Source of the DNA: an uncultured virus (IMG/VR IMGVR_UViG_3300010214_000051)
Taxonomy: Duplodnaviria > Heunggongvirae > Uroviricota > Caudoviricetes
Strand: one strand, 5' to 3'
DNA: 20,000 bases
IMG/VR virus record: IMGVR_UViG_3300010214_000051
Coordinates: 44,536 to 64,535 of that record
In this document: piece after piece, positions 2,861 to 17,828 of the stretch
Layout of the letters: every line of letters begins with the position of its first letter
Position numbering within the stretch: position 1 is the first letter of the stretch
Translations under genes and position numbers: made by a program
The notes under the pieces: model-generated
What the model saw: only the letters and a program-made list of their open reading frames with translations
The model's database searches: none
What the model was told of the DNA's origin: nothing

Positions 2861-3284
2861 AAAGTTCGATTTAAATGCAACTTCAAACCTGTTCCGGGGG
2901 TGTTCCACAACCAGTTCCATCTAACCCCTTGTAACCACTATTCTTTTAACCCTCAGAACAAGTGGAACAGGTGGAACAGTAGTATAATGAATGAGAGTGA
3001 AGGAGGTAGGGGTATAGAGGGACTACAACTGGTAGACAGTGAATCACCCCCACGCGACAGTGTATAGGAACCCCCCTGTTCCGGGGGTCCACCCGTTCCA
3101 GCATTGATTTTAAAGGGTTTTTCAGGAACAGGCCCGTTCCACAACCGAAAACCTGTTCCACCCATGCTGATGGCACAAATGCGATTTAAATCGAACTTTC
3201 CGAAAAGTGGCATTTAGATGCAAAAAGACCCGGAAGCCGAGCCGCCGGGTCTCAAAGTGGAAATGCGATTTAAATCGAACTTTC
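2861..3284. repeat. Iteron/inverted-repeat cluster, putative replication origin
   Basis: 11 GTTCC/GGAAC cores at 2891-3159; 24-bp direct repeat 3177-3200/3261-3284; 16-bp inverted copy at 2861-2876; AT-richer and non-coding; directly downstream of the primase-helicase. Confidence 0.7.
3222..3252 (-). terminator. Intrinsic terminator of the primase transcript
   Basis: Minus strand AGACCCGG-loop-CCGGGTCT followed by a T tract, 30 nt past the stop. Confidence 0.7.
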
Positions 3285-5814
3285 AGTCTAGTCCGTTCCA
3301 GCCCTCACGAATAAAGCATCGCTGTTTTCCGTACTGGGCGAAGCGGTGCTGCCCGCCATAAACCCAGCCTTTGACCTTGCGCATCGCGCGGCCCACCATT
3401 TGTGCTTCGCGGTCCGGGTAAACGTGGCGATCGCGGCCCATCATCACCTCCCAGATCTCCATGTAGCAGGTCCGGTTGCGGTAGCGCACCGGCTCGCCCG
3501 GCAACTGGGTAAGCCCGTCCTCCGAGCCGATGGGTGAGTCGAGCCATTCCTCGATCTGGGCGGCCAGCGCGTCGTCGGCGCCGATCTGTCGCCGGCTCTC
3601 CTGGATCTCGCGGGCATAGTCGACGGCGACCTGGCTCTTCATGAACAGCGGCAGCGTGCCGTACGGCTGCTCCGCCCGCATCTTGCGGTACATCGCGGTC
3701 GCCTCGGCCCATATCTGGTCGATCTCCGCCGACAGTCGCGACGTGTCGATTGACGCCACGCGACATTCGACCGGCCAGAACCGTCGGGCGCCGGTGGCGT
3801 CGCGCAGATACTCGCGATCGTTGGTCGAGCCGCCCATGACACACTGCCGGTCGAACTCTTGCGGGTGGCGGGCGTAGGCGAGGCGGACAATGTCGCTCTG
3901 GCGGCTGATGAAGCCCTTGATGGTCTGGACCTCTGCTCGGGAGAAGCCCTGAAGCTCTGGCAGTTCGATGATCCAGGCGCCCTGCATCCGTTCGACCATG
4001 CCCTTGGCGTCGTGGAAGTCGCCCTCCAGTTCGGCGAACCAGTGCCGACCGAGGACCCGGAAGAAGGTAGACTTGCGCACGCCCTGCGCGCCTTCGAGAA
4101 TCGGCACGAAGTCGAACTTGTGGCCCGGCTCAAAGACGCGGACGACCGCGCCCAGAAGCCACATCAGGGCAGCCTCGCGATGGTAGTCGTTGCCCTCGGC
4201 GCCGACGTAGTCGACGAAGAGCGTCGCCGCGCGGTGCTTGCCGTCCCAGGTCAGGCTGTTCAGGTAGTCCCGAATCGGGTGGAAGGCGTGCAGCCGCGCC
4301 ACCTTGTCGATCGCCTCGTCGAGATCCCGCTTGCTGGTCTTCAGCCCGTAGCCGCCCTGGCGTTCCGGGGCTTCCAGGATGATGCGGATGTCGGTCGACA
4401 GGACGTCAGTCCAACGCTTGCCGTTGATGCGATGCCGCTCCTCGGACACGCGCCACATGGCGCCCTCCAACTGGCGGATCGGCTTGGGCGATTCCTTGCG
4501 TAGCGCGAAGCGCTTGGGCTCGGCGCGCTGGACCAGCAGCTGCGAGAACTCGTTGTAGCCGATGACGCCGCGCAGCCGCTTGTCGTTGCGGATGATCAGC
4601 TCGACGTTGTGGACCGTCGGCTTGATGCCGCCGTCCTCGTTGCGCTGCAGATACTGGAACCAGTCGGGGTCGTATTCGACGACGCCCGAACCAGAGGCCG
4701 GCGCCGGGACAGCCGCGCGCTCAGGCTGCGAGAACACGTCCAGCAGGTCCGCCACATCGTCGGTCGGCGCCAGCAGGTCGATCTCGACGGGTTCGGCGGT
4801 CGACACCTCTTCCAGCAGGGCGTGACCCTGGGCGAGGCGATGGTTGGATGCCGCCTGGATCAGGCTCGCCATCCGAATCGGGTTGCGCGTCGATGCTGCG
4901 TTCTTGCCGAAGGAGCGCCAGACGGCTTTGCTGTCCTTCAGGTCGAACTTCTCGGACTGCTTGGACCACTCGCACCAGCGGGTGAAGCCGTTGTCGGCGC
5001 CGCGGTATTCGTGGTGCAGCGCCATGCCGACCTGATACCAGTGGTCCCGGTCCTCGACCCAGTCCTCGGGCAGGTCGGCCAGCGTGGCGGCGATTTCGTT
5101 CTCCGACAGACCCATCGGCTCGGCCCGGTAGAGGGCCATCAGGTCATCGTCGTCGTCACCGAGGTTCAGGTCGTCGCTGGATGCGCCCCAGGAGGCGACT
5201 GTCTCGGGCGCGACCACGGGCGCGATGCCCAGCAGATCGCCGAAGTCGAGCGGGCGCTCCCAGACGTAGGGCAGGCCGGTTTTGTCGTGGATCGACGGCG
5301 GCAGCACGGCCTGTTTGGCGGTGCCGAAGAACTCGATTTCCCAGTCGTGCTTGCGGACGTTCCGCTCAAGCTCGCTGTCGTAGACCATCTCCCAGCCTTC
5401 CGACTTCGCCAGCTTGCGGGTGCGGAAGGGCTTGGTGGTGATCAGATAGAGGTGGCGACTCTCGCCGCCGCTGCCCGAACGGACAGTGGGCGCCAGGCGC
5501 GCATCCGGCCACATGGCGATCAGCGCGTCCCACGCGGCCGCCGCGGCTTCGGGCTTGCGGATGTCTAGGTCGACCAGGTGCAGGTAGCCGCCGGCGACGG
5601 CGCTCACCGCTCCGGGGCGGACCCCCAGATTGTAGCCGCGCTGATATGCTGCGGCGAGGGACTCCATCGTATGAACGGGTTTGTCGGCCCACTTCTCGCC
5701 GACTGGGCGTTTGGTGCGAGGATGCAGCCAGTGGACAGCGACACCCGCCTCGATCAGAGGGCGGGCGGCGTCCAGCATCTCGGCTTCGGACGGTAGATTC
5801 CCCATGTCGGGCAC
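3283..5814 (-). CDS. Primase-helicase: Prim-Pol + PriCT-2 + VirE/VapE P-loop domain (843 aa)
   Basis: AEP motifs LVDLD and SRHLY; PriCT-2 pattern WYQVGMALH...WCEWS...WRSF; Walker A GAQGVRKST; DATGARRFWPV. Confidence 0.92.
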   Translation of the reverse strand: MPDMGNLPSEAEMLDAARPLIEAGVAVHWLHPRTKRPVGEKWADKPVHTMESLAAAYQRGYNLGVRPGAVSAVAGGYLHLVDLDIRKPEAAAAAWDALIAMWPDARLAPTVRSGSGGESRHLYLITTKPFRTRKLAKSEGWEMVYDSELERNVRKHDWEIEFFGTAKQAVLPPSIHDKTGLPYVWERPLDFGDLLGIAPVVAPETVASWGASSDDLNLGDDDDDLMALYRAEPMGLSENEIAATLADLPEDWVEDRDHWYQVGMALHHEYRGADNGFTRWCEWSKQSEKFDLKDSKAVWRSFGKNAASTRNPIRMASLIQAASNHRLAQGHALLEEVSTAEPVEIDLLAPTDDVADLLDVFSQPERAAVPAPASGSGVVEYDPDWFQYLQRNEDGGIKPTVHNVELIIRNDKRLRGVIGYNEFSQLLVQRAEPKRFALRKESPKPIRQLEGAMWRVSEERHRINGKRWTDVLSTDIRIILEAPERQGGYGLKTSKRDLDEAIDKVARLHAFHPIRDYLNSLTWDGKHRAATLFVDYVGAEGNDYHREAALMWLLGAVVRVFEPGHKFDFVPILEGAQGVRKSTFFRVLGRHWFAELEGDFHDAKGMVERMQGAWIIELPELQGFSRAEVQTIKGFISRQSDIVRLAYARHPQEFDRQCVMGGSTNDREYLRDATGARRFWPVECRVASIDTSRLSAEIDQIWAEATAMYRKMRAEQPYGTLPLFMKSQVAVDYAREIQESRRQIGADDALAAQIEEWLDSPIGSEDGLTQLPGEPVRYRNRTCYMEIWEVMMGRDRHVYPDREAQMVGRAMRKVKGWVYGGQHRFAQYGKQRCFIREGWNGLD

Positions 5815-6108: not shown

Positions 6109-6193
6109 ACCGTAAGCGGAGAGCCGAGTTTCGTCAAATAGAACGAGACGATTGTCCCTTTTAGGTTGACAAACATTCTGAGCCGAGCATCTT
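6109..6193. promoter_or_regulatory. Divergent promoters with central operator
   Basis: Leftward TTGACG(6137-6132)-N17-TACGGT(6114-6109); rightward TTGACA 6166-6171 with a weak -10; GAGAC-GATT-GTCCC dyad at 6145-6158 between them. Confidence 0.6.
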
Positions 6194-6242: not shown

Positions 6243-6725
6243 ATGAGCCTGGAAGCCAATATCGCGGCCCTGACTGAAGCCGTCGTCGCCCTGACCGACA
6301 TCACCACCAAACTGCATTCCCTGCGCGCCGACGCCATCGAGCAGGTCACGGCTGCCGCCAAGCCGGGCGCCGCGAAGAAGGCCGCCGCAGCCAAGGCCGA
6401 TGAGCCCGCCGCCGAGCCGAAGGCCGAGCCGAAGGCCGAAGCCAAGGCGGTCGCTCCTGCCGCCGGCGAGCCGACGCCCGAGTTCCTGAAGATGAAGAAG
6501 TCGGTCGCCGATTTCCTGGGCGGCAGTGAGCGCGAGGAAGAGCGCGAGGCCCGCAAGGCGAAGGTGCGCGAACTGCTGGCGAACCCGAAGGTCGCCGCCA
6601 CGAAGCTCGAGGACGTTAAGCCCGAACTCTACCCGGCGATCGAGAGCGCCATGACCCGGCTGATCGCGGCCGGCGACCTCACGAAGCCGGCCGGGGCCGA
6701 GGACCCGCTGGACCTGGGCGTCTGA
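6243..6725 (+). CDS. Phage protein typical of the position upstream of DUF2800 (N-terminal coiled coil, Ala/Pro/Lys linker, helical C-domain)
   Basis: AAGGA RBS; strong GC3 codon bias; MSLEANIAALTEAV start. Confidence 0.8.
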   Translation: MSLEANIAALTEAVVALTDITTKLHSLRADAIEQVTAAAKPGAAKKAAAAKADEPAAEPKAEPKAEAKAVAPAAGEPTPEFLKMKKSVADFLGGSEREEEREARKAKVRELLANPKVAATKLEDVKPELYPAIESAMTRLIAAGDLTKPAGAEDPLDLGV

Positions 6726-6732
6726 TCGCCCG

Positions 6733-6840
6733 CGCCCCTGGCTTCTGCTGGGGGCGTTCTGGCGGACCGGCGGTGCAGGGAGCGAGATCCCCCCGCCTCG
6801 CGCACGGCAACCCCGCGTCGTCGGTCCACCTGAACGCCTC
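6733..6840 (+). ncRNA. Structured intergenic RNA element, copy 1
   Basis: Hairpin 6733-6756 overlaps a long stem 6751-6776/6815-6840; homologous to the 9035-9159 element. Confidence 0.6.
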
Positions 6841-6853
6841 GAGATTGAGTACC

Positions 6854-7114
6854 ATGTCCACCAAGCCCACGATCACAGTCTTCACGACGAAGTACGCCAT
6901 GACGACCGGCCAGGTCTTCGAGACCAAGGTCACGGATCAGGGCAACGGGACGTGCGTGCGTCGCGGCGGCGCGGGCTGGGATTTCTTCAAGTTCGACATC
7001 GACGCCTTCCACACACGCGAAGCGGCCGTGGCCGACGCCGAGAAGCGCCGTCGCCAGCGGATCGAGGACCTGCAACGGCAGATCGACAAGCTGGAAGGCT
7101 TCGATTTTGCATGA
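6854..7114 (+). CDS. Phage hypothetical protein (86 aa)
   Basis: MSTKPTITVFTTKYAMTTG...; C-terminal coiled coil; stop overlaps the DUF2800 start. Confidence 0.75.
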   Translation: MSTKPTITVFTTKYAMTTGQVFETKVTDQGNGTCVRRGGAGWDFFKFDIDAFHTREAAVADAEKRRRQRIEDLQRQIDKLEGFDFA

Positions 7115-8289
7115 TGAAGCACGCACGCATCGGCCCGTCGGCGGCGGAGCGCTGGTTCGTTTGCCTCGGCTCGGTCGCCCTCATCGAAAAGATGGTCGCC
7201 AGCGGAGAGATTGACCCCAACGCACCGAACCCGCCCGCTGACGAAGGCACCGCCGCGCATCATTTCCGTTCCGACGCCCTGTCGCTGGGCATGGACGCCT
7301 GGGACTTCGTGGGGCAGGCGATCACCATCCGCGGCGCCCGCTACGAATGCACTGAGGAGATGGCCGCGTTCCTGCAGCCGGGCATCGACTGGATACGCCA
7401 GCAGCCGGGCAATCGCGTGATCGAGCATCGCGTCGATCTCGGGCGCTGGATTCCCGACGGCTTCGGCACGCTGGACTGCGGCATCATCCACCTGGGTTCC
7501 CGCACGCTGATCATCAACGACCTGAAGTTCGGGTTCGTGCCGGTTGAAGCGCAGGACACTCTGCAACTCAGGATATATGCCCTCGGCGTGCTGGACTACT
7601 ATGACTTGTGGGACAAGATCGACAAGATCGTCCTGGTGATCGACCAGCCGCGCAACGGCGGGCAGAAGCTGTGGTCCGTCACGGTCGAGGAACTGGAACA
7701 GTTCGGCCAGGAGGTCCGTATCGCTGCGGCCCGCGTCAACGAGCCGGATGCGCCGCTGGTCGTGTCGCCCGCCGGCTGCCAGTGGTGCGACGTGAAGCGC
7801 AGCGTCCGGGGTTGCTCGGCCTGGAACGCCCACATGGAGGCGCTGCTCGACGACGCGTCTGACCCGGACCTCCTGACGCCCGAGCGGCGCTGGGAGATCT
7901 GCCAGATCGCGCCGCAGGCGAAGAAGTGGCTGGATCAGATCGTCAGGCAGGCCACTGACGCGGCGGTCGCGGGTAACCCTGATCCCGGCGCCAAGGCGGT
8001 GCCCGGCAAGGCCGGCAACCGCGAATACCGCGACGAGGCGAAGGCGCAGGAGATCCTGGTCGCCGCGCTCGGAGACGACGCTTTCACCCGGCAGCTGAAA
8101 TCGCCGGCCCAGGCCGAGGCGCTGCTGCGTCCGGCGCGCGGGCGCGACGGCGATCCTGCCGCCTGGGCCGAACTGAACAAGATCATCGTGCGTCCGCCCG
8201 GCAAGCCGGTGCTGGCGCCGCTGAAGGACCGGCGCCTGAGCCTGTCCTACCTCGCCAAGGCGATTGACGAGTTCGAAGACCTGAACTGA
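7111..8289 (+). CDS. DUF2800 family Cas4-like PD-(D/E)xK exonuclease
   Basis: HARIGPSAAERW..C, EGTAAH, GFGTLD, INDLKFG, QLRIYALG, CQWC motifs; start reassigned to 7111 (ATGA overlap). Confidence 0.9.
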   Translation: MMKHARIGPSAAERWFVCLGSVALIEKMVASGEIDPNAPNPPADEGTAAHHFRSDALSLGMDAWDFVGQAITIRGARYECTEEMAAFLQPGIDWIRQQPGNRVIEHRVDLGRWIPDGFGTLDCGIIHLGSRTLIINDLKFGFVPVEAQDTLQLRIYALGVLDYYDLWDKIDKIVLVIDQPRNGGQKLWSVTVEELEQFGQEVRIAAARVNEPDAPLVVSPAGCQWCDVKRSVRGCSAWNAHMEALLDDASDPDLLTPERRWEICQIAPQAKKWLDQIVRQATDAAVAGNPDPGAKAVPGKAGNREYRDEAKAQEILVAALGDDAFTRQLKSPAQAEALLRPARGRDGDPAAWAELNKIIVRPPGKPVLAPLKDRRLSLSYLAKAIDEFEDLN

Positions 8290-8305
8290 CCAAGGAGAGT
8301 CGACC

Positions 8306-9028
8306 ATGTCCACGCAGGACAAAGATCCCCGTACCCAAACGCTCAAGGGCGTAATCCTGTCGTTCACCGACGGCATCAAGGAGAAGCGCCTGCCGCGCAA
8401 CGCCGAACCGGGTACGAAGGAGAAGCACAACTTCAACATCATCGTGCCGTCGGGAACGCCGCACACCGAAGAGAACCTGCGCCGCATCGGCATCGCCCTG
8501 AAGGCGGCCGGCGAGAAGCAGTGGAAGGACCCGGACGCCTACCGCAAGATCGCCGAGGACAATCCGAAGCGGGTCACGTTCAAGAAGGGCGAGCGCTTCA
8601 AGAACAAGGAAGGCCAGATTTACGCCGGCTACGAAGGCCACCACGCGTTCGCCGTGTCCGGCCCTGGCGGCGGCGAGCGTCGCCCGAAGCTGCTGGACCG
8701 CTACAAGCGCAAGCTGCGCGAGCAGGCGGACGCCGCCGAGATCAAGGACGGCCGGGTGTTCGAAGAGGGCCAGATCCTCGACATCTTCTATTCCGGCACC
8801 CGCGCTGACGTGATTGTCTCGTTTTATGGGACGGATAAGGGCTCGCGCGGCGTCTTCGCGACGGCGGAAGTCGTTCGCTCGCACCAGGAAGGCGAACGCA
8901 TGGCTGGCGGCTACGTCTTCGACGAGTCGGACATGGATGAGTTCGAGGACTTCGGTGACGACGGGCTGGACGAGATCAGCGCGTCGGAGACGTCGGCGAA
9001 ATCCGACGAGTTCGACCTGGGCATCTAA
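8306..9028 (+). CDS. DUF2815 family (T7 gp2.5-like) single-stranded DNA-binding protein
   Basis: AAGGAG RBS; follows DUF2800; FYSG motif; long acidic C-terminal tail. Confidence 0.85.
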   Translation: MSTQDKDPRTQTLKGVILSFTDGIKEKRLPRNAEPGTKEKHNFNIIVPSGTPHTEENLRRIGIALKAAGEKQWKDPDAYRKIAEDNPKRVTFKKGERFKNKEGQIYAGYEGHHAFAVSGPGGGERRPKLLDRYKRKLREQADAAEIKDGRVFEEGQILDIFYSGTRADVIVSFYGTDKGSRGVFATAEVVRSHQEGERMAGGYVFDESDMDEFEDFGDDGLDEISASETSAKSDEFDLGI

Positions 9029-9034
9029 GCCCGC

Positions 9035-9159
9035 GGATGCTCGGCCGCTTCGGCGGCCGGGTGTTCCGGCGGACCGTCATGGTGTCGTCAGACGCCCGCA
9101 TCGGGCGGCCCTATCCGTGAGGACGGGCTGGCGCTGTGACGGTCCACCCGAATACCTGG
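9035..9159 (+). ncRNA. Structured intergenic RNA element, copy 2
   Basis: C(UUCG)G hairpin 9035-9066 overlaps a long stem 9057-9086/9130-9159 that encloses two small hairpins, one with a GUGA GNRA loop. Confidence 0.65.
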
Positions 9160-9168
9160 GAGACGAAA

Positions 9169-9768
9169 ATGCAGCATGTGATGATCGACCTCGAGACCCT
9201 GGGTACAGCGGTGAACGCGCCGGTGCTCGCCATCGGGGCCGTGTTCTTTGAGCCGTCGACCGGAGAAATCGGCCCGAAGTTCTACGCCGGGATCGACATG
9301 GGCGACGCCTGTCGTTGGGGGCGGCCGAACGGCGACACGATCAAATGGTGGATGGGGCAGAGCGACGAAGCGCGGCGCGCCGCCACTGCTGGCCGCGACA
9401 CGTCGGCGGAGGCCTTCGGGAAGTTCCGCGGCTGGCTCGCGCAAGGCGGACTGGACATCAAGCCGTGGGGCAACGGAGCGTCGTTCGACATCAGCATCCT
9501 CGACTATGCGTTCGCCAGGATCACCGACAAGCCGGCGCCGTGGAAGTTCTGGAATGTGCGCGACTGCCGGACGATTCAGGAACTGGGTCGTCTCGTTACT
9601 GATTACCCCGGAGAGCGTCAGGGCACCCACCACCAGGCGCTCGACGACGCGCTGTTTCAGGCGCAGTGGGTCTCGCACTACTGGCAGGCGCTGACGAAGG
9701 TTTCGGCGGTCCGCGCCGCGCCTCTGCAGGCTGTCGCGTCCACCTCGGCGGTCGATCTGCTGGTATGA
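9169..9768 (+). CDS. DEDDh 3'-5' exonuclease (Rv2179c/exonuclease VIII N-terminal-like)
   Basis: MIDLETLG, WGNGASFD, RDCRT, HQALDDA motifs; GGGAG RBS before ATG 9169. Confidence 0.9.
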   Translation: MQHVMIDLETLGTAVNAPVLAIGAVFFEPSTGEIGPKFYAGIDMGDACRWGRPNGDTIKWWMGQSDEARRAATAGRDTSAEAFGKFRGWLAQGGLDIKPWGNGASFDISILDYAFARITDKPAPWKFWNVRDCRTIQELGRLVTDYPGERQGTHHQALDDALFQAQWVSHYWQALTKVSAVRAAPLQAVASTSAVDLLV

Positions 9769-9953
9769 GCGACTCTCCGCAAGCCTGCGCCGCGCGCGCC
9801 GCAGACCCCCGTTGGCAGGAGGAGCAGCGTCAGAAGAACGCTGCCGCCTCGGCGCGCTTCCGCGCCTATCGCGAGAGCGTCGGGATGCCGATTGAGCGGT
9901 CCAAGACCTCCCGCGTGGCCGGTGACGGCTGGGGCGCGACGAAGGGCGACTGA
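9765..9953 (+). CDS. Small hypothetical protein (62 aa)
   Basis: Fills the gap exactly, with ATGA and TGATG overlaps. Confidence 0.55.
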   Translation: MSDSPQACAARAADPRWQEEQRQKNAAASARFRAYRESVGMPIERSKTSRVAGDGWGATKGD

Positions 9954-10729
9954 TGACTATCGGCGTCTATTGCATCATGCACGTCCCAAGCGGGAAGCGA
10001 TATATCGGCAAATCGGTGAATGTCGAAGCACGCCTGGCGCAGCACAAATACAATCTGACTCAGCTGATTTTCGACCAGAAGAAGTGCAACAGACACCTTT
10101 GGAACGCCGTGCAGAAGTACGGGTGGGACCAGTTTGAGACCTGGATCGTAGAAGCATTCGACAAGATAGATGAAGACTTGATCGCCGAACGCGAACTGCA
10201 TTGGATGGACGAACTGCGGACCTGCGAACGGCCATTCGGGTACAATCTGCGTCGAGATAGTCGGACCAAGATGATCGTCCATGAGGAAACTCGCGCCCTC
10301 ATCTCGGCTCAGGTTTCCGGTCCACTGAACCCGAACTACGGCAACCACTGGACGGACGAGCAGCGGGCGGCGATGTCGGCTAACCGTCGATCCAGAGCGC
10401 ATCGCTATGGGGACGACTGGCGCCGTACCCTGGGCGAGAGGTCGCGGGAGTTTTGGCAGGGCAACCCTGAAAAGCGCGCCGAGATGGGCGCGAAGGTCGC
10501 TGAAATAAAGCGCGTCTACGATTTCCTTCAGTACGACCGGGACGGAAGGCTCGTCCGACGCTGGTCGAGCATGGACGAAATCGTCGCGGCTCACCCGGAC
10601 TTCAAGCGACAGGTCATCTACTCGGTCTGCCACGGCTGGAAGAAGACCTACAAAGGGTTCGTCTGGCGCCAAGAGCGCAAGGCGGAACTCCCGACAGCCA
10701 TGCAACTGCTTCTGTTGGCGGCAGCATGA
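9953..10729 (+). CDS. GIY-YIG homing endonuclease with NUMOD-type DNA-binding tail
   Basis: GVYCI...RYIGKS, R, E and GYN catalytic motifs; NPNYG and YKGFVWR tail motifs. Confidence 0.88.
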   Translation: MTIGVYCIMHVPSGKRYIGKSVNVEARLAQHKYNLTQLIFDQKKCNRHLWNAVQKYGWDQFETWIVEAFDKIDEDLIAERELHWMDELRTCERPFGYNLRRDSRTKMIVHEETRALISAQVSGPLNPNYGNHWTDEQRAAMSANRRSRAHRYGDDWRRTLGERSREFWQGNPEKRAEMGAKVAEIKRVYDFLQYDRDGRLVRRWSSMDEIVAAHPDFKRQVIYSVCHGWKKTYKGFVWRQERKAELPTAMQLLLLAAA

Positions 10730-12666
10730 GCCTCCTGGTCTGCGACATCGAGGTTTATCCCAACCTATTCCTGATCGCGTTCAAGCGGTTGTCGGACGGG
10801 CGTGTCTTCACAATGGAGATGAGCGACCGTTCGCAAATCGACATCCCTCGGCTCAAGAAAATCCTCAAGGCGAATACGATCATAACTTTCAACGGGATGG
10901 CGTTCGACGTTCCGCTGATCTTCTATGCCATCAAGGGCGCGACCACGCGGCAACTGAAGTCTGCGGCGGATAGGATCATCAACGGACGGGTGAAATACTG
11001 GGATGTCGAAGACCTTCTCGGCATCAAGATTCCGCGTGACCTGGACCATCTGGACCTTATCGAACCTCAACCCAACCCGTTCGCCAGTCTGAAGGTGCTG
11101 AACGGCCGGATGCACGGCCGCACCCTGCAAGACCTGCCATACGACCCTGACCGCGTCCTCACACACGATGAGATGGACCAGGTCACTGCGTACTGCATCA
11201 ACGATCTCGCGGCGACCGAGGCGCTTTTCAACGCCATGCGAGAGCCGCTGGAGATGCGTCAGGTCATCGGCGCCGACCTGGGTGTAGACCTGCGTTCTAA
11301 GTCTGACACGCAGATGGGCCTCGCCATCATCAAGAACCGCGCCGAGCGCCTGTTGAGGCGCCGGATTGAGAAAGTGCCTGTGAAGCCCGGAACCGCGTTC
11401 CGGTACAAGCCGCCGACCTACATGCAGTTCGAGACGCCCATCCTGCGGGAAATGCTTGAGCGTGTCCGCGAGCACGAGTTCGTGGTCAAGGATGACGGCA
11501 AGGTGGACCTTCCTTCCTTCCTAGCCGATACGCCCGTGGTGATTGGGGAAACGACCTACGCCATGGGTATCGGCGGGCTCCATTCCACCGAGAGCAACCG
11601 GGCTGTCCATAGCGACGAGGAACACGTCCTCCTGGACGCAGACTGCGCGGGATATTACCCGGCGATCATCCTCACCCTGGGCATGTTCCCGCCCTCAATC
11701 GGCAAGGACTTCCTGCCGATCTTCAACGGCATCCGTGAGGATCGACTGGTCGCCAAGAGCGCCAAGGATAAGGCTCGCGACAAGGGCCTCAAGATCGCCA
11801 CCAATGGCACTTTCGGGTCACTGGGCAACCGCTATTCCTTCGTCTTCGCGCCGCATCTGCTGATCGCGACAACGCTGACCGGCCAGCTTGCCCTTCTGAT
11901 GCTGATCGAACGGGCCGAGCGCGCAGGCATTCAGGTCGTCAGCGCCAACACCGATGGCGTCGTTTTCCGCTGCCCTCGTGAGCACTTCGACGGCGTGGAC
12001 GGTATCCGACTCAACCCCTCGTTCCTCGCCGACCTGACGAGCCAATGGGAGATCGACACCGGCTTCGATCTTGAGTTCGTTGAGTACGAGGCGATCTACA
12101 ATCAGTCTGTGAACTCCTATTTTGCGTTGAAAAAGGACGGCGGACACAAACGCAAAGGCCCCATCGCTAACCCATGGTCGCCGCATCCCGACGACTTCGA
12201 CCCTCGGGGCCAACTGATGAAGAACCCCCAGGCGACGATCTGCTCGGACGCCGCCCTGGCCCTGATCAAGCACGGCACGCCGATCGAAGACACCATCTAC
12301 GGCTGCACGGACATCCGGCAGTTCGTCACGGTCATCAAGGCCGACGGCGGCGCGACCTGGCGAGGCGACTATCTCGGCAAGGTGGTCCGCTATTACTGGT
12401 CGACCGACGGCGACCCGATATTCAAGGCCAAGGCGCACGCGAAGACCGGCAATCACCCGATGGTTCCGAAGACCGAGGGCGCAGCGCCTTGCATGACGTT
12501 GCCCGACGACCTGCCGGACGACATCGACTACGAGCGGTACGTCGCGGTGACGCGCGAGATCCTGATGGACATCGGCTACGCCGAGCGCCCGGAAGTCGTG
12601 AAGCCCATTCGCCTGACCAAGGTGAACCGAAGCTACGTCCTGGGCATGTGGGCCACGGCCGCATGA
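10726..12666 (+). CDS. Divergent family-B-like phage DNA polymerase with 3'-5' exonuclease
   Basis: ExoI CDIEVY, ExoII FNGMAFD, ExoIII YCIND; Pol motifs DCAGYYP, KIATNGTFG, ANTDG. Confidence 0.88.
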   Translation: MSLLVCDIEVYPNLFLIAFKRLSDGRVFTMEMSDRSQIDIPRLKKILKANTIITFNGMAFDVPLIFYAIKGATTRQLKSAADRIINGRVKYWDVEDLLGIKIPRDLDHLDLIEPQPNPFASLKVLNGRMHGRTLQDLPYDPDRVLTHDEMDQVTAYCINDLAATEALFNAMREPLEMRQVIGADLGVDLRSKSDTQMGLAIIKNRAERLLRRRIEKVPVKPGTAFRYKPPTYMQFETPILREMLERVREHEFVVKDDGKVDLPSFLADTPVVIGETTYAMGIGGLHSTESNRAVHSDEEHVLLDADCAGYYPAIILTLGMFPPSIGKDFLPIFNGIREDRLVAKSAKDKARDKGLKIATNGTFGSLGNRYSFVFAPHLLIATTLTGQLALLMLIERAERAGIQVVSANTDGVVFRCPREHFDGVDGIRLNPSFLADLTSQWEIDTGFDLEFVEYEAIYNQSVNSYFALKKDGGHKRKGPIANPWSPHPDDFDPRGQLMKNPQATICSDAALALIKHGTPIEDTIYGCTDIRQFVTVIKADGGATWRGDYLGKVVRYYWSTDGDPIFKAKAHAKTGNHPMVPKTEGAAPCMTLPDDLPDDIDYERYVAVTREILMDIGYAERPEVVKPIRLTKVNRSYVLGMWATAA

Positions 12667-15492: not shown

Positions 15493-15993
15493 TTGCCAAC
15501 ATCTGCCCGCTACGACTTTTTGCCCCCAGGCGTGACCTGTAAGGCCGCGCCTCGCGATATTACCGGAGAACGTTTCGATCGACTCGTTGCACTTCGTTGC
15601 GTCGGCAAACATGAAACCGGGTCGCTTCTATGGGAATGTCGCTGCGATTGTGGCGGGACCAAGGTTGTGCGTTCCAGCCATCTCGTGAACAAGAAGACGC
15701 GCTCATGCGGCTGCTATCGTTCTTATCCGAGGAAGCGGGGACACACGCCTTGGAACAAAGGTTTATCGTATCAAACCAAGGGCGACACCGAGGTTTTCAG
15801 AAGCAAAAAGGCATTCACTGAAGCGGCGCTGCGCCGTTTCGGTAATAAATGCTCGGAATGCGGTTGGGACAAAGGGCGATGTGACGCGCATCATATTGTC
15901 CACAGGTCTAAGGGCGGTCTCAACACAATCGAAAACGCGAAGATTTTGTGCCCCAACTGTCACCGAGTCCACCATGAAAAGGCGGGCTGGTGA
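15493..15993 (+). CDS. HNH homing endonuclease
   Basis: DITGERFDRL...WECRCDCG...SCGC N-domain, PWNKG, CxxC...HHI...N...LCPNCH; lower GC. Start uncertain: TTG 15493 after GGAGA, or GTG 15457. Confidence 0.85.
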   Translation: MPTSARYDFLPPGVTCKAAPRDITGERFDRLVALRCVGKHETGSLLWECRCDCGGTKVVRSSHLVNKKTRSCGCYRSYPRKRGHTPWNKGLSYQTKGDTEVFRSKKAFTEAALRRFGNKCSECGWDKGRCDAHHIVHRSKGGLNTIENAKILCPNCHRVHHEKAGW

Positions 15994-17828
15994 TGCGTTT
16001 CGGCAGTGTTTGCAGTGGCATCGAAGCCGCCTCTATTGCGTTCGCGCCCCTTGGTTGGGAGGCCGCGTGGTTGGCAGAGGTCGACGTGGCTGCGTCGCAG
16101 GTTCTCTCCCATCGGCTCGGTGCGACGGCGCCCGTCTTCCCGCTCAACGGGACAGAGAAGGCAATCTCGCGTCTGAAATGGGGTGGTCGGATCACCAACT
16201 GGGGCGACATGACCCGTGTCGCAGAGATGGTTCGCTCGGGTGAAGCCGAGGCGCCTGACGTTCTGTGCGGAGGAACCCCGTGCCAGTCGTTCTCTATCGC
16301 GGGTCTTCGGCGCGGCCTTGACGACGCGCGAGGCAATCTCGCGCTCGCGTTTATTCAACTGGCGAATGCGATTGACGAACGTCGTGCTGCCGAGGGCAAG
16401 GAGCCTTGTATTGTCATATTTGAGAACGTCCCCGGACTCCAGTCCTCCCATGATAACGCCTTCGGCTGTTTCCTCGCCGGACTTGCCGGGGATGACGACG
16501 CTCTTGAGCCTGGCCCACGACCTGGACCAGCACGGTCCTCTGCCTACTGGACATGGGACAAAAAGGCCGGTCAGCACCGCGCTAAGTGGCCGGACGCGGG
16601 TGCTGCTGTTGGACCCCAGAGGGCAGTCGGCTGGCGGATCGGCGATGCCCAATGGTTCGGCTTGGCCCAACGACGCCGTCGTATCTTCGTTGTCGCAAGT
16701 GCTCGTGAGGGGTTCGATCCCGCAGCAATACTTCTTGAGTTCGACGGCGTGCGCCGGGATTCTCCGCCGAGCCGAGAAACGGGGCAAGAAGTTGCCGGAA
16801 CCCTTGATGCTCGCACTGATGGCGGCGGTTTCCCAGGATCAGACGGAGCCGCACAGTATCACGTCGTCCCTCATGGACTCGGAAGCGGACGACCTGATGG
16901 ATCTGTTGGGCTAGGGTTCGCGGTTGAAGTCTGCCCGACGCNNNNNNNNNNCGCAGGCGGGAACACGACCGGGGGCGATCGTCCGCCTGGCACCGACGTC
17001 GACACAGCTGATAGTCTCATCGTGCAGGCGGTCCCGACCTGGTGGGACGGATCGCCGGTCAGTCAGACGCTCGACGCCGTTCTCTACAAGGGGCAGACGA
17101 TGCCCGAGAAGAACCGCTTCCCGGCGGTGCTTCAGCCGGTCGCGTTCACGCAGAACAGCCGAGACGAAGTCCGCCTCATCAACGGCGACGGGCAGATAGC
17201 AGGGACACTTAGTGCAGAGGGCGGGACGCACCAGACGAACTATATCGCGCAATCCGTCGCCCTCCGTGGTCGAGACGGCGGCGCCACCGCAGAACTTGGT
17301 GGCGAAGCGGCCTATGCGCTGCGGGCGTCCGATGGCGGCGGGAGCGATCCCTATGTGCTGGCGCCGGTGGTCTGCGTCACAGGCGACGTCACCCACACGC
17401 TGAAGGCCGAAGGGTTCGACGCGTCAGAGGATGGCACGGGTCGCGGTCAGCCGATTGTAGCTTTTGACACCTACAATCAATCGACCAGTGATGTGACACA
17501 TACGCTCAGGAATCCGAACGGAACCTTCGGGGACGCACTGCCTGCCGTCTTCAACGGCGCCACCATGGCCGTCCGCCGCCTGATGCCCATCGAATGTCAC
17601 TATCTTCAAGGTTTTCCGGGCGACTGGTGCGCCGTCCTGACCGGGCCGAAGGGCGACAAGATCGCTGCCGACGGCCCGCAATACAAGCAGCTTGGGAACT
17701 CCTGGGCGGTCAATCACGCCCGCTGGGTCGGCTATCGGATCGCCGCGTGGCTCGCCGCGAATCCGTCGCGCCCGGTGATCGAGATGGAGTTCGACGAGAA
17801 CCTGCTGATGTGGGCGCTCGCGGCATGA
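15993..17828 (+). CDS. C5 DNA cytosine methyltransferase with greatly expanded variable region
   Basis: Motif I SVCSGIEA, IV GGTPCQSFS, VI ENVPG, VIII QRRRRIF, IX RRLMPIEC..LQGFP, X LGNS; spans a 10-N gap. Confidence 0.92.
   Translation: MRFGSVCSGIEAASIAFAPLGWEAAWLAEVDVAASQVLSHRLGATAPVFPLNGTEKAISRLKWGGRITNWGDMTRVAEMVRSGEAEAPDVLCGGTPCQSFSIAGLRRGLDDARGNLALAFIQLANAIDERRAAEGKEPCIVIFENVPGLQSSHDNAFGCFLAGLAGDDDALEPGPRPGPARSSAYWTWDKKAGQHRAKWPDAGAAVGPQRAVGWRIGDAQWFGLAQRRRRIFVVASAREGFDPAAILLEFDGVRRDSPPSRETGQEVAGTLDARTDGGGFPGSDGAAQYHVVPHGLGSGRPDGSVGLGFAVEVCPTXXXXAGGNTTGGDRPPGTDVDTADSLIVQAVPTWWDGSPVSQTLDAVLYKGQTMPEKNRFPAVLQPVAFTQNSRDEVRLINGDGQIAGTLSAEGGTHQTNYIAQSVALRGRDGGATAELGGEAAYALRASDGGGSDPYVLAPVVCVTGDVTHTLKAEGFDASEDGTGRGQPIVAFDTYNQSTSDVTHTLRNPNGTFGDALPAVFNGATMAVRRLMPIECHYLQGFPGDWCAVLTGPKGDKIAADGPQYKQLGNSWAVNHARWVGYRIAAWLAANPSRPVIEMEFDENLLMWALAA
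16216..16914 (+). CDS. Nested +1-frame ORF in the MTase gene, M.EcoHK31I beta-subunit-like (start uncertain: 16216/16366/16450/16492/16645)
   Basis: 232 open codons; SLSQVL...QYFLSSTACAGILRRAEKRGKKLP motif; ends DDLMDLLG like other proteins of this phage. Confidence 0.7.
   Translation: MSQRWFARVKPRRLTFCAEEPRASRSLSRVFGAALTTREAISRSRLFNWRMRLTNVVLPRARSLVLSYLRTSPDSSPPMITPSAVSSPDLPGMTTLLSLAHDLDQHGPLPTGHGTKRPVSTALSGRTRVLLLDPRGQSAGGSAMPNGSAWPNDAVVSSLSQVLVRGSIPQQYFLSSTACAGILRRAEKRGKKLPEPLMLALMAAVSQDQTEPHSITSSLMDSEADDLMDLLG

Follow-up and report, generated by a model that had tools for sequence, protein, structure and literature searches.

In a 64,535-bp provirus record from an uncultured virus (IMG/VR IMGVR_UViG_3300010214_000051), the final 20 kb (this whole 20,000-nt stretch is called the window below) carry two copies of a structured RNA element in the spacers of an early replication operon, each a long stem with a terminator-like hairpin in front of it. 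The element is a real conserved phage RNA: 23 copies were found in Casjensviridae-like phages and prophages, all on the sense strand and in the same early replication operon, and the hosts, where named, are Alphaproteobacteria only. The helix, its strand and its position are conserved, and the core of the helix fits the published rules for RNase III substrates. We estimate at roughly 65% the probability that the elements are cis-acting substrates of the host RNase III between the early replication genes of a temperate Casjensviridae-like phage; most likely, each combines a site of RNase III processing with a hairpin, fused to it, that would protect a 3' end. An earlier note on this DNA had proposed an RNase III-type processing site, a protein-binding attenuator or translational switch, or a recombination cassette boundary, and it is the first of these that covariation in homologues and a register test against published cleavage rules favor.

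Structure and conservation of the element

The two copies occupy the spacers 6726–6853 and 9029–9168, whose common arms lie where they had been placed, at 6752–6769 and 9059–9076 on the 5' side and at 6822–6839 and 9140–9157 on the 3' side; their matches exceed chance, being equalled in 0/200 shuffles. The stems do carry equivalent mismatches (U.U and C.A in a stem of 9+2+13 bp in copy 1, C.C and C.A in a stem of 10+2+17 bp in copy 2), which gives a general layout of 9–10 bp, a 1x1 mismatch, 2 bp, a 1x1 mismatch and 13–17 bp, and both are preceded by the hairpins noted earlier, the second with a UUCG loop (Table 1). Each stem folded alone gave z values of −3.4 (copy 1) and −5.4 (copy 2), and the value for copy 1 is only −1.0 once the upstream hairpin is in the fold. 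A strict geometry scan of the 64.5-kb contig returned only copies 1 and 2 on the + strand, against 0 in 12 shuffles, and a single unrelated match, lying inside a gene, on the − strand.

Searches for homologous loci from single proteins yielded nothing; an alignment of the single-stranded DNA-binding protein (SSB) of the operon succeeded, giving 37 loci, to which GenBank adds ten phage stretches, T7 among these. The first 18 copies comprise 15 anchored by the geometry scan and three spotted by eye, after exclusion of near-duplicates (L006–L008, L026, L033, L066) and of scan matches that were in-gene or had purine mismatches (L016, L017:771, L019:8381, L031:843, L034, and the leader stems of L009 and L010). 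When 17 of the 18 were aligned (L038, which has a long insert, was omitted), 97% of cells were paired and compensatory changes appeared in 18 of 20 pairs, compared with 41–47% paired cells in slid-alignment controls; the pairing-compatible substitutions first seen between the window copies hold in the homologues. A covariance model built from the aligned copies (R1) and then used on the relatives added five more, which were kept as a held-out set (L012, L027, L017, L077 and Rhizobium phage RHph_X2_30). Read on the sense strand, G.U pairs outnumber A.C pairs 16 to 4, which points to a function as RNA of that strand.

The position of the element is equally regular. Among 21 tabulated copies it lies 33–78 nt past a stop codon and 15–31 nt ahead of a start codon, and it follows the first gene of the operon, follows the SSB gene or directly precedes the DUF2800 gene, with a variable gene downstream. 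The apical domains have no alignable sequence in common. On the SSB tree the element occupies 20 of 34 rows, which implies at least five gains or losses, some of the 14 negatives being short fragments; relatives without the long stem retain a plain hairpin at the same places, which we count for the RNase III interpretation. The R1 search gave no copy in Phobos, DSS3-P1, pCB2051-A, AchV4, N133, APSE-7 or T7. Whole-record model searches overlooked known copies in G002, G006 and G010, so blanks from such searches are not taken as absence. DNA-pattern scans of viral contigs produced in one case 0 matches, in another a single match to an already known locus, and in a third 12 matches, two of them known, one a genuine new copy (L077) and nine without model support; the four matches of a further scan were all put down to chance. 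Nothing of use came from BLAST searches of phages and plasmids with the elements as queries.

The element is unmatched by any family of Rfam 15 in a scan of the window, both spacers and eight homologous loci, in which it drew only sub-threshold hairpin matches. In phages, the DUF2800 RNA motif (RF02960) sits upstream of DUF2800 genes; it has no match in the contig at E values up to 10 (cut-off 60.2 bits). A literature search found no description of the element and no paper pairing Casjensviridae with RNase III, the supplements of PMC5737381 and PMC10690425 being places where the motif may be listed, and a term search of the RcD genome paper turned up no text about terminators, stem-loops or intergenic elements.

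Two further structures in relatives should be mentioned. A second stem of the mismatch, 2 bp, mismatch type (A.G and U.U) lies in the leader of the first gene at L009:541–637 and L010:427–523, and it could be a further site or an operator palindrome. After the SSB gene of another relative (L031:1290–1395) there is a stem that is also long and has a sizeable apical domain but one mismatch and no model match; it is possibly an independent RNase III-type site.

Agreement with RNase III substrate rules

In E. coli in vivo, pairing at the two central positions of RNase III targets is about 90% and favors G-C, and the D/D' positions are A-U or U-A (PMC6212723, the part considered here). In vitro, a G-C pair beside the scissile bond stops catalysis and a G-C pair at position 2 of the proximal box (pb) stops binding, and a single set of boxes is enough for the enzyme (PMC1540722, in part). 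Both window stems reach the required length of about 22 bp around a 2-bp center; the outer stem is merely 5–6 bp in four copies. Over the 23 copies the central 2 bp are paired in 23 and 22 cases, each being G-C or C-G in 19/23, whereas the positions that flank them are never G-C or C-G (0/23 each) and are mismatched in 20/23 and 21/23, an absence of G-C that is partly built into the scan that yielded 15 of the copies. The outer D' pair, second outward, is U-A in 23/23, and U-A was not demanded by the scan. The inner stem has eight positions paired in 22–23 of 23 copies; in the distal box, where U-A and U-G are preferred, G.U stands at J' in 6/23, both window copies included, and K' is mainly G-C or C-G. 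The A-U/U-A rule for pb position 2 holds for one half-site, the outer, and not for both.

E. coli targets of intramolecular double cleavage (Altuvia 2018, PMC6212723, in part) share with the element the helix of about 22 bp, the G-C-rich central 2 bp, A-U or U-A at one D position and tolerated pyrimidine or C.A pairs at B/B'. In Table S4 of that work, B and B' are the core positions richest in such mismatches (18 and 13 counts), and their mismatches are nearly all pyrimidine pairs or C.A/A.C. The predicted distance between cuts is 68 and 79 nt in the window copies, near the E. coli median of 58 nt given there. The differences are also clear: B/B' are mainly paired in E. coli (67 and 72 of 86 table counts in PMC6212723) and both mismatched in 19/23 copies here, the inner D is here mainly G-C, and the host is alphaproteobacterial.

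For the register test we applied the Table S4 matrix (E. coli in vivo, PMC6212723) to 18 copies in 11 registers. With a pseudocount of 0.5, 16 of them score best when the dyad is set on the central 2 bp; in pair-permuted controls the mean was 3.7 (core) and 7.7 (full), and 16 was reached in 0/1000. The central register was also the top one in 5/5 held-out copies with the core matrix (one tie) and in 4/5 with the full matrix. Scored by the method of the paper, the copies average −23.6, and the window copies (−26.1 and −20.6) fall inside the range of true sites in the portion of Table S5a compared (PMC6212723). As a positive control, the matrix finds the known E. coli 17S site. Both named host-type genomes encode RNase III.

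Several results weigh against the RNase III interpretation. With the pseudocount of the paper (0.01) the central register was chosen in only 11/18 (full) or 13/18 copies (core), and window copy 1 then favors register +3. The matrix misses the E. coli 23S site, whose stem is bulged while scoring is ungapped, and in four alphaproteobacterial rRNA stems it did not pick out look-alike registers. Closing the mismatches in silico lowers the count to 7–8/18, so that much of the register signal is geometry; the test is partly circular, because 15 of the 18 copies were found by a scan for that geometry, and the controls overstate significance, because the copies are related. The inner D pair is G-C or C-G in 18/23, which for the enzyme of E. 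coli is an antideterminant of binding, so that the optimal arrangement of two half-sites is absent. Site choice by the S. meliloti RNase III differs from that of the E. coli enzyme (PMC6121014, in part), and several full-length relatives gave no element in the model search.

Host rRNA stems were compared separately. We considered whether the core mimics the host pre-16S stem and rejected this, since the matrix favors a different register in that stem and the cut known from E. coli is 5 positions off. The Plastorhodobacter pre-23S stem (L085:2655–2682 with 5503–5530) has the C.A, 2 bp, U.U arrangement, with U-A on the inner side; it shows the same geometry yet is not picked out by the matrix, and the Sphingopyxis pre-23S stem is without this geometry.

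Proposed processing and alternative explanations

The order of events that we propose is as follows. Polymerase would pass the weak terminator-like hairpin behind the first gene and behind the SSB gene; the hairpin would fold first in transcription, and the long stem would follow when the 3' arm has been transcribed and would displace part of the hairpin. RNase III would then cleave around the central 2 bp on one or both strands, the released 5' arm would refold into the hairpin and shield the 3' end of the upstream mRNA, and the downstream mRNA would begin with about 20 nt of leader free of structure and have an accessible ribosome-binding site. The predicted products are consistent with this: the upstream RNA is capped by the hairpin and the downstream leader is nearly unfolded (about −2 kcal/mol). 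There are precedents for RNase III cuts on one strand after which a hairpin protects the 3' end (PMC3867540, in part). In this scheme the lifetime and translation of the two upstream genes would be controlled apart from the nucleases and polymerase; the likely outcome of the model is that the messages of the first gene and of SSB are stable, with nucleases and polymerase tuned separately, and the effect on downstream expression could be up or down.

A close counterpart is T7, with five RNase III signals in its early region (R0.3, R0.5, R1, R1.1, R1.3; PMC3867540, in part). As here, several look-alike intergenic stems lie along one early polycistronic transcript, and comparison of the folds places each immediately ahead of a ribosome-binding site. 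In contrast, the hairpins at the T7 sites are short, their internal loop is asymmetric and no upstream hairpin overlaps them, while the elements have two 1x1 mismatches around 2 bp, an apical domain of 40–120 nt and a fused terminator-like hairpin. By analogy, we take the elements to work as the T7 early signals do, without homology to them.

As for the hairpin and the stem, the picture is more complex than the two mutually exclusive folds described in the earlier note. The two do overlap in most copies, but the best fold of copy 1 combines the hairpin core with 4 bp of the outer stem, and in 4 of 21 copies (L017, two in L018, and L019) the hairpin core stands beside the full outer stem of 5–6 bp, which it abuts; many other copies have a mixed fold with the proximal box still paired. 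Because of these four copies and the widespread mixed folds, a strict two-state switch is not supported as the conserved feature. An uncleaved attenuator or translational-coupling switch, in which hairpin and long stem alternate and the stem impedes the next ribosome-binding site, with the state set by the ribosome ending the upstream gene or by a phage protein, would nevertheless profit from the small energy difference between the two folds (in 21 copies −5.5 to +3.7 kcal/mol, −0.3 and +1.0 in the window), from the covariation of the outer-stem extension although it is also part of the hairpin, and from a Shine-Dalgarno 4-mer that begins −2 to +4 nt from the stem end in 14/23 copies. It should be noted that the predicted populations shift with the length of sequence folded. 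Neither window hairpin passes a terminator scan (5 T in 8 nt), the 3' arm cannot antiterminate the hairpin because it is transcribed later, and the fixed core of mismatch, 2 bp and mismatch and the invariant U-A are left unexplained; we regard such a switch as unlikely. Binding of a protein without cleavage, whether by non-catalytic RNase III, by an autoregulating phage protein such as SSB or the product of the first gene, or by polymerase on a put-like RNA, is more doubtful still. The put RNA of HK022 has a hairpin and a stem adjacent to each other, resembling the layout of the element. Tandem pyrimidine and C.A mismatches are plausible for recognition, the inner half bears the antideterminant, and RNase III sites resistant to cleavage exist (PMC1540722, in part); against this, G-C is avoided precisely at the two positions where it would block catalysis, there is little sequence conservation beyond the U-A (central pairs are GG, CG, AG, CU, GU, UC and CA), and Rfam gives no put or other match.

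A DNA-level recombination or cassette boundary (an attC-like hairpin or miniature transposon end) is very improbable. The variable downstream gene and the patchy distribution, once or twice per genome, would suit it; the excess of G.U over A.C, the constant sense orientation, the junction with hairpin and ribosome-binding site and the mere two copies in the contig would not. The mismatches are symmetric, not extrahelical bases as in attC, and the 1859-nt deletion of a relative spans 6292 to 8152 and does not run from element to element.

It is also conceivable, with rather low probability, that the apical fragment (49–131 nt), cut out by RNase III, is the principal product, a small RNA (sRNA) with anti-Shine-Dalgarno loops; this would extend the RNase III interpretation and is compatible with it. 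DicF is an sRNA. The prophage dicF region stands among the RNase III targets that are cut twice (Table S5a of PMC6212723, in part), and cuckoo sRNAs of Alphaproteobacteria bear CCUCCUCCC as a loop motif (PMC4615179, in part). A C-rich, anti-Shine-Dalgarno-like 5-mer is found in 15/23 apical interiors (shuffle mean 9.2, with 9/2000 as high; locus background 2.1). The exact motif CCUCCUCCC stands in predicted loops of 2/23 copies (shuffle mean 0.04), namely at L005:2375–2390 and in L077 (reverse). On the other hand, the C-rich patterns were picked after inspection, unpaired 6-mers with five or more C occur in just 5/23 copies (shuffled mean 2.4), window copy 2 lacks a C-rich loop, and the apical domains do not align. 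Membership in the cuckoo/ar14 family (RF02344) did not hold up, in spite of the shared loop motif and alphaproteobacterial setting: CCUCCUCCC is absent from both window copies, and the ar14 model gives 17 bits against a cut-off of 58.8. Cuckoo RNAs, moreover, have 2–4 adjacent hairpins each with the motif (PMC4615179, in part), unlike the one loop within a closing stem here. A three-in-one cassette that caps the upstream message with the hairpin, opens the ribosome-binding site and releases a structured sRNA of 50–130 nt, with a C-rich, cuckoo-like loop to pair with host or phage Shine-Dalgarno sequences, is likewise rather improbable; if true, it would be a mobile scaffold bringing varied sRNA cargo from early-operon spacers.

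The elements form an RNA family outside Rfam 15 whose covariation, if they are RNase III sites, shows what the alphaproteobacterial enzyme may prefer, possibly pyrimidine or C.A mismatches that replace A-U beside the cut in G+C-rich RNA, with one good half-site. That RNase III processes an early phage operon is already known from T7; beyond T7 would be a possible released sRNA and the hairpin fused to the stem, with which the upstream product could be capped. The probable use for the virus is to divide one long message into parts with different lifetimes. Sites predicted at nucleotide level occur in cultured phages, the Rhodobacter RcD cluster (in RcPescado at record positions 4401–4512) and Rhizobium phage RHph_X2_30.

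The replication operon and other features of the window

The closest named relatives are the Rhodobacter RcD phages (Casjensviridae), with an SSB identity of 43%. The operon runs rightward in the order 160-aa gene, element 1, phrog_22725, DUF2800 exonuclease, SSB, element 2 and DEDD exonuclease, followed by a GIY-YIG endonuclease, DNA polymerase and helicase (Table 1). The product of the first gene has no match in Pfam or PHROG; its homologues are equally placed in relatives, and it falls in unnamed viral clusters of the Atlas. Most homologues of the Gp2.5-like SSB contain PF10991. One close relative (run X19) lacks window positions 6293–8151 (1859 nt), so that its first gene is cut short after the start and runs into the final part of DUF2800.

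Table 1. Window coordinates of the two element copies and of the genes around them.
Feature	Position	Strand	Details
Candidate −35 of the operon, TTGACA hexamer	6166..6171	+	Sequence; within the 23-nt repeat shared with 993–1015
First gene of the operon, 160 aa, Ala/Lys-rich, tail DLGV	6243..6725	+	Open reading frame (ORF)
Copy 1, terminator-like hairpin	6732..6757	+	Folds; 3' side shared with outer stem
Copy 1, 5' arm	6751..6776	+	Outer 6751–6759, U.U 6760, central 6761–6762, C.A 6763, inner 6764–6776
Copy 1, predicted cuts	6762/6763 and 6830/6831	+	Placed by the central 2 bp
Copy 1, apical domain	6777..6814	+	C-rich loop AUCCCCCCGC at about 6787–6796
Copy 1, 3' arm	6815..6840	+	Next start codon 6854
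86-aa protein, phrog_22725, function not assigned	6854..7114	+	PHROG match
DUF2800/Cas4-like exonuclease	7111..8289	+	PF10926, E 1e-62; phrog_69
Gp2.5-like SSB (DUF2815 relatives), tail DLGI	8306..9028	+	phrog_112
Copy 2, UUCG-capped terminator-like hairpin	9035..9066	+	Folds; overlaps outer stem
Copy 2, 5' arm	9057..9087	+	Outer 9057–9066, C.C 9067, central 9068–9069, C.A 9070, inner 9071–9087
Copy 2, predicted cuts	9069/9070 and 9148/9149	+	Placed by the central 2 bp
Copy 2, apical domain	9088..9128	+	Two small hairpins; no C-rich loop
Copy 2, 3' arm	9129..9159	+	Last paired base is the first of GGAG; start codon 9169
DEDD-type 3'-5' exonuclease (Rv2179c-like)	9169..9768	+	PF16473, E 4e-53

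The similarity of the two copies had been said to extend into the ends of the upstream genes. This similarity is real, but it codes for a protein tail, D-L-G-[VI]-stop; a third gene (contig 8939–9265) has the same ending yet no element after it. Acidic tails of the type D-L-(G/L)-(V/I/G) end the products of window genes 6243–6725, 8306–9028, 9169–9768 and 16216–16914 and of contig 8939–9265, and many SSB homologues have acidic tails of a similar kind; judging from the residues, the tail is perhaps a common docking peptide. The 232-aa ORF at 16216–16914, with the tail DLMDLLG, lies in another frame wholly inside the methyltransferase gene (15990–17828). Other products end in Ala-Ala: the GIY-YIG endonuclease (9953–10729, LLLAAA), DNA polymerase (10726–12666, MWATAA) and the methyltransferase (LWALAA), tails which we take to resemble alphaproteobacterial ClpXP degradation tags.

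A 23-nt repeat, 91% identical, occurs at 993–1015 and 6151–6173, each copy ending in TTGACAAA, one before the C4 module and one before the replication operon, and is likely a common promoter or operator of the two. A consensus promoter scan gave no full site around the TTGACA hexamer, whose −35 label is a candidate only. The C4 antisense RNA lies at 1062–1237 (+; 66.8 bits, over the cut-off), with an isrK-like stretch immediately upstream and a Rha/Ant-like gene (1284–1871) downstream, an arrangement that we read as a P1/P4-type antirepressor control module. AT-rich repeats of the TCGATTTAAAT type at 2851–2896, 3166–3198 and 3250–3295, beside the primase end, are a possible replication origin.

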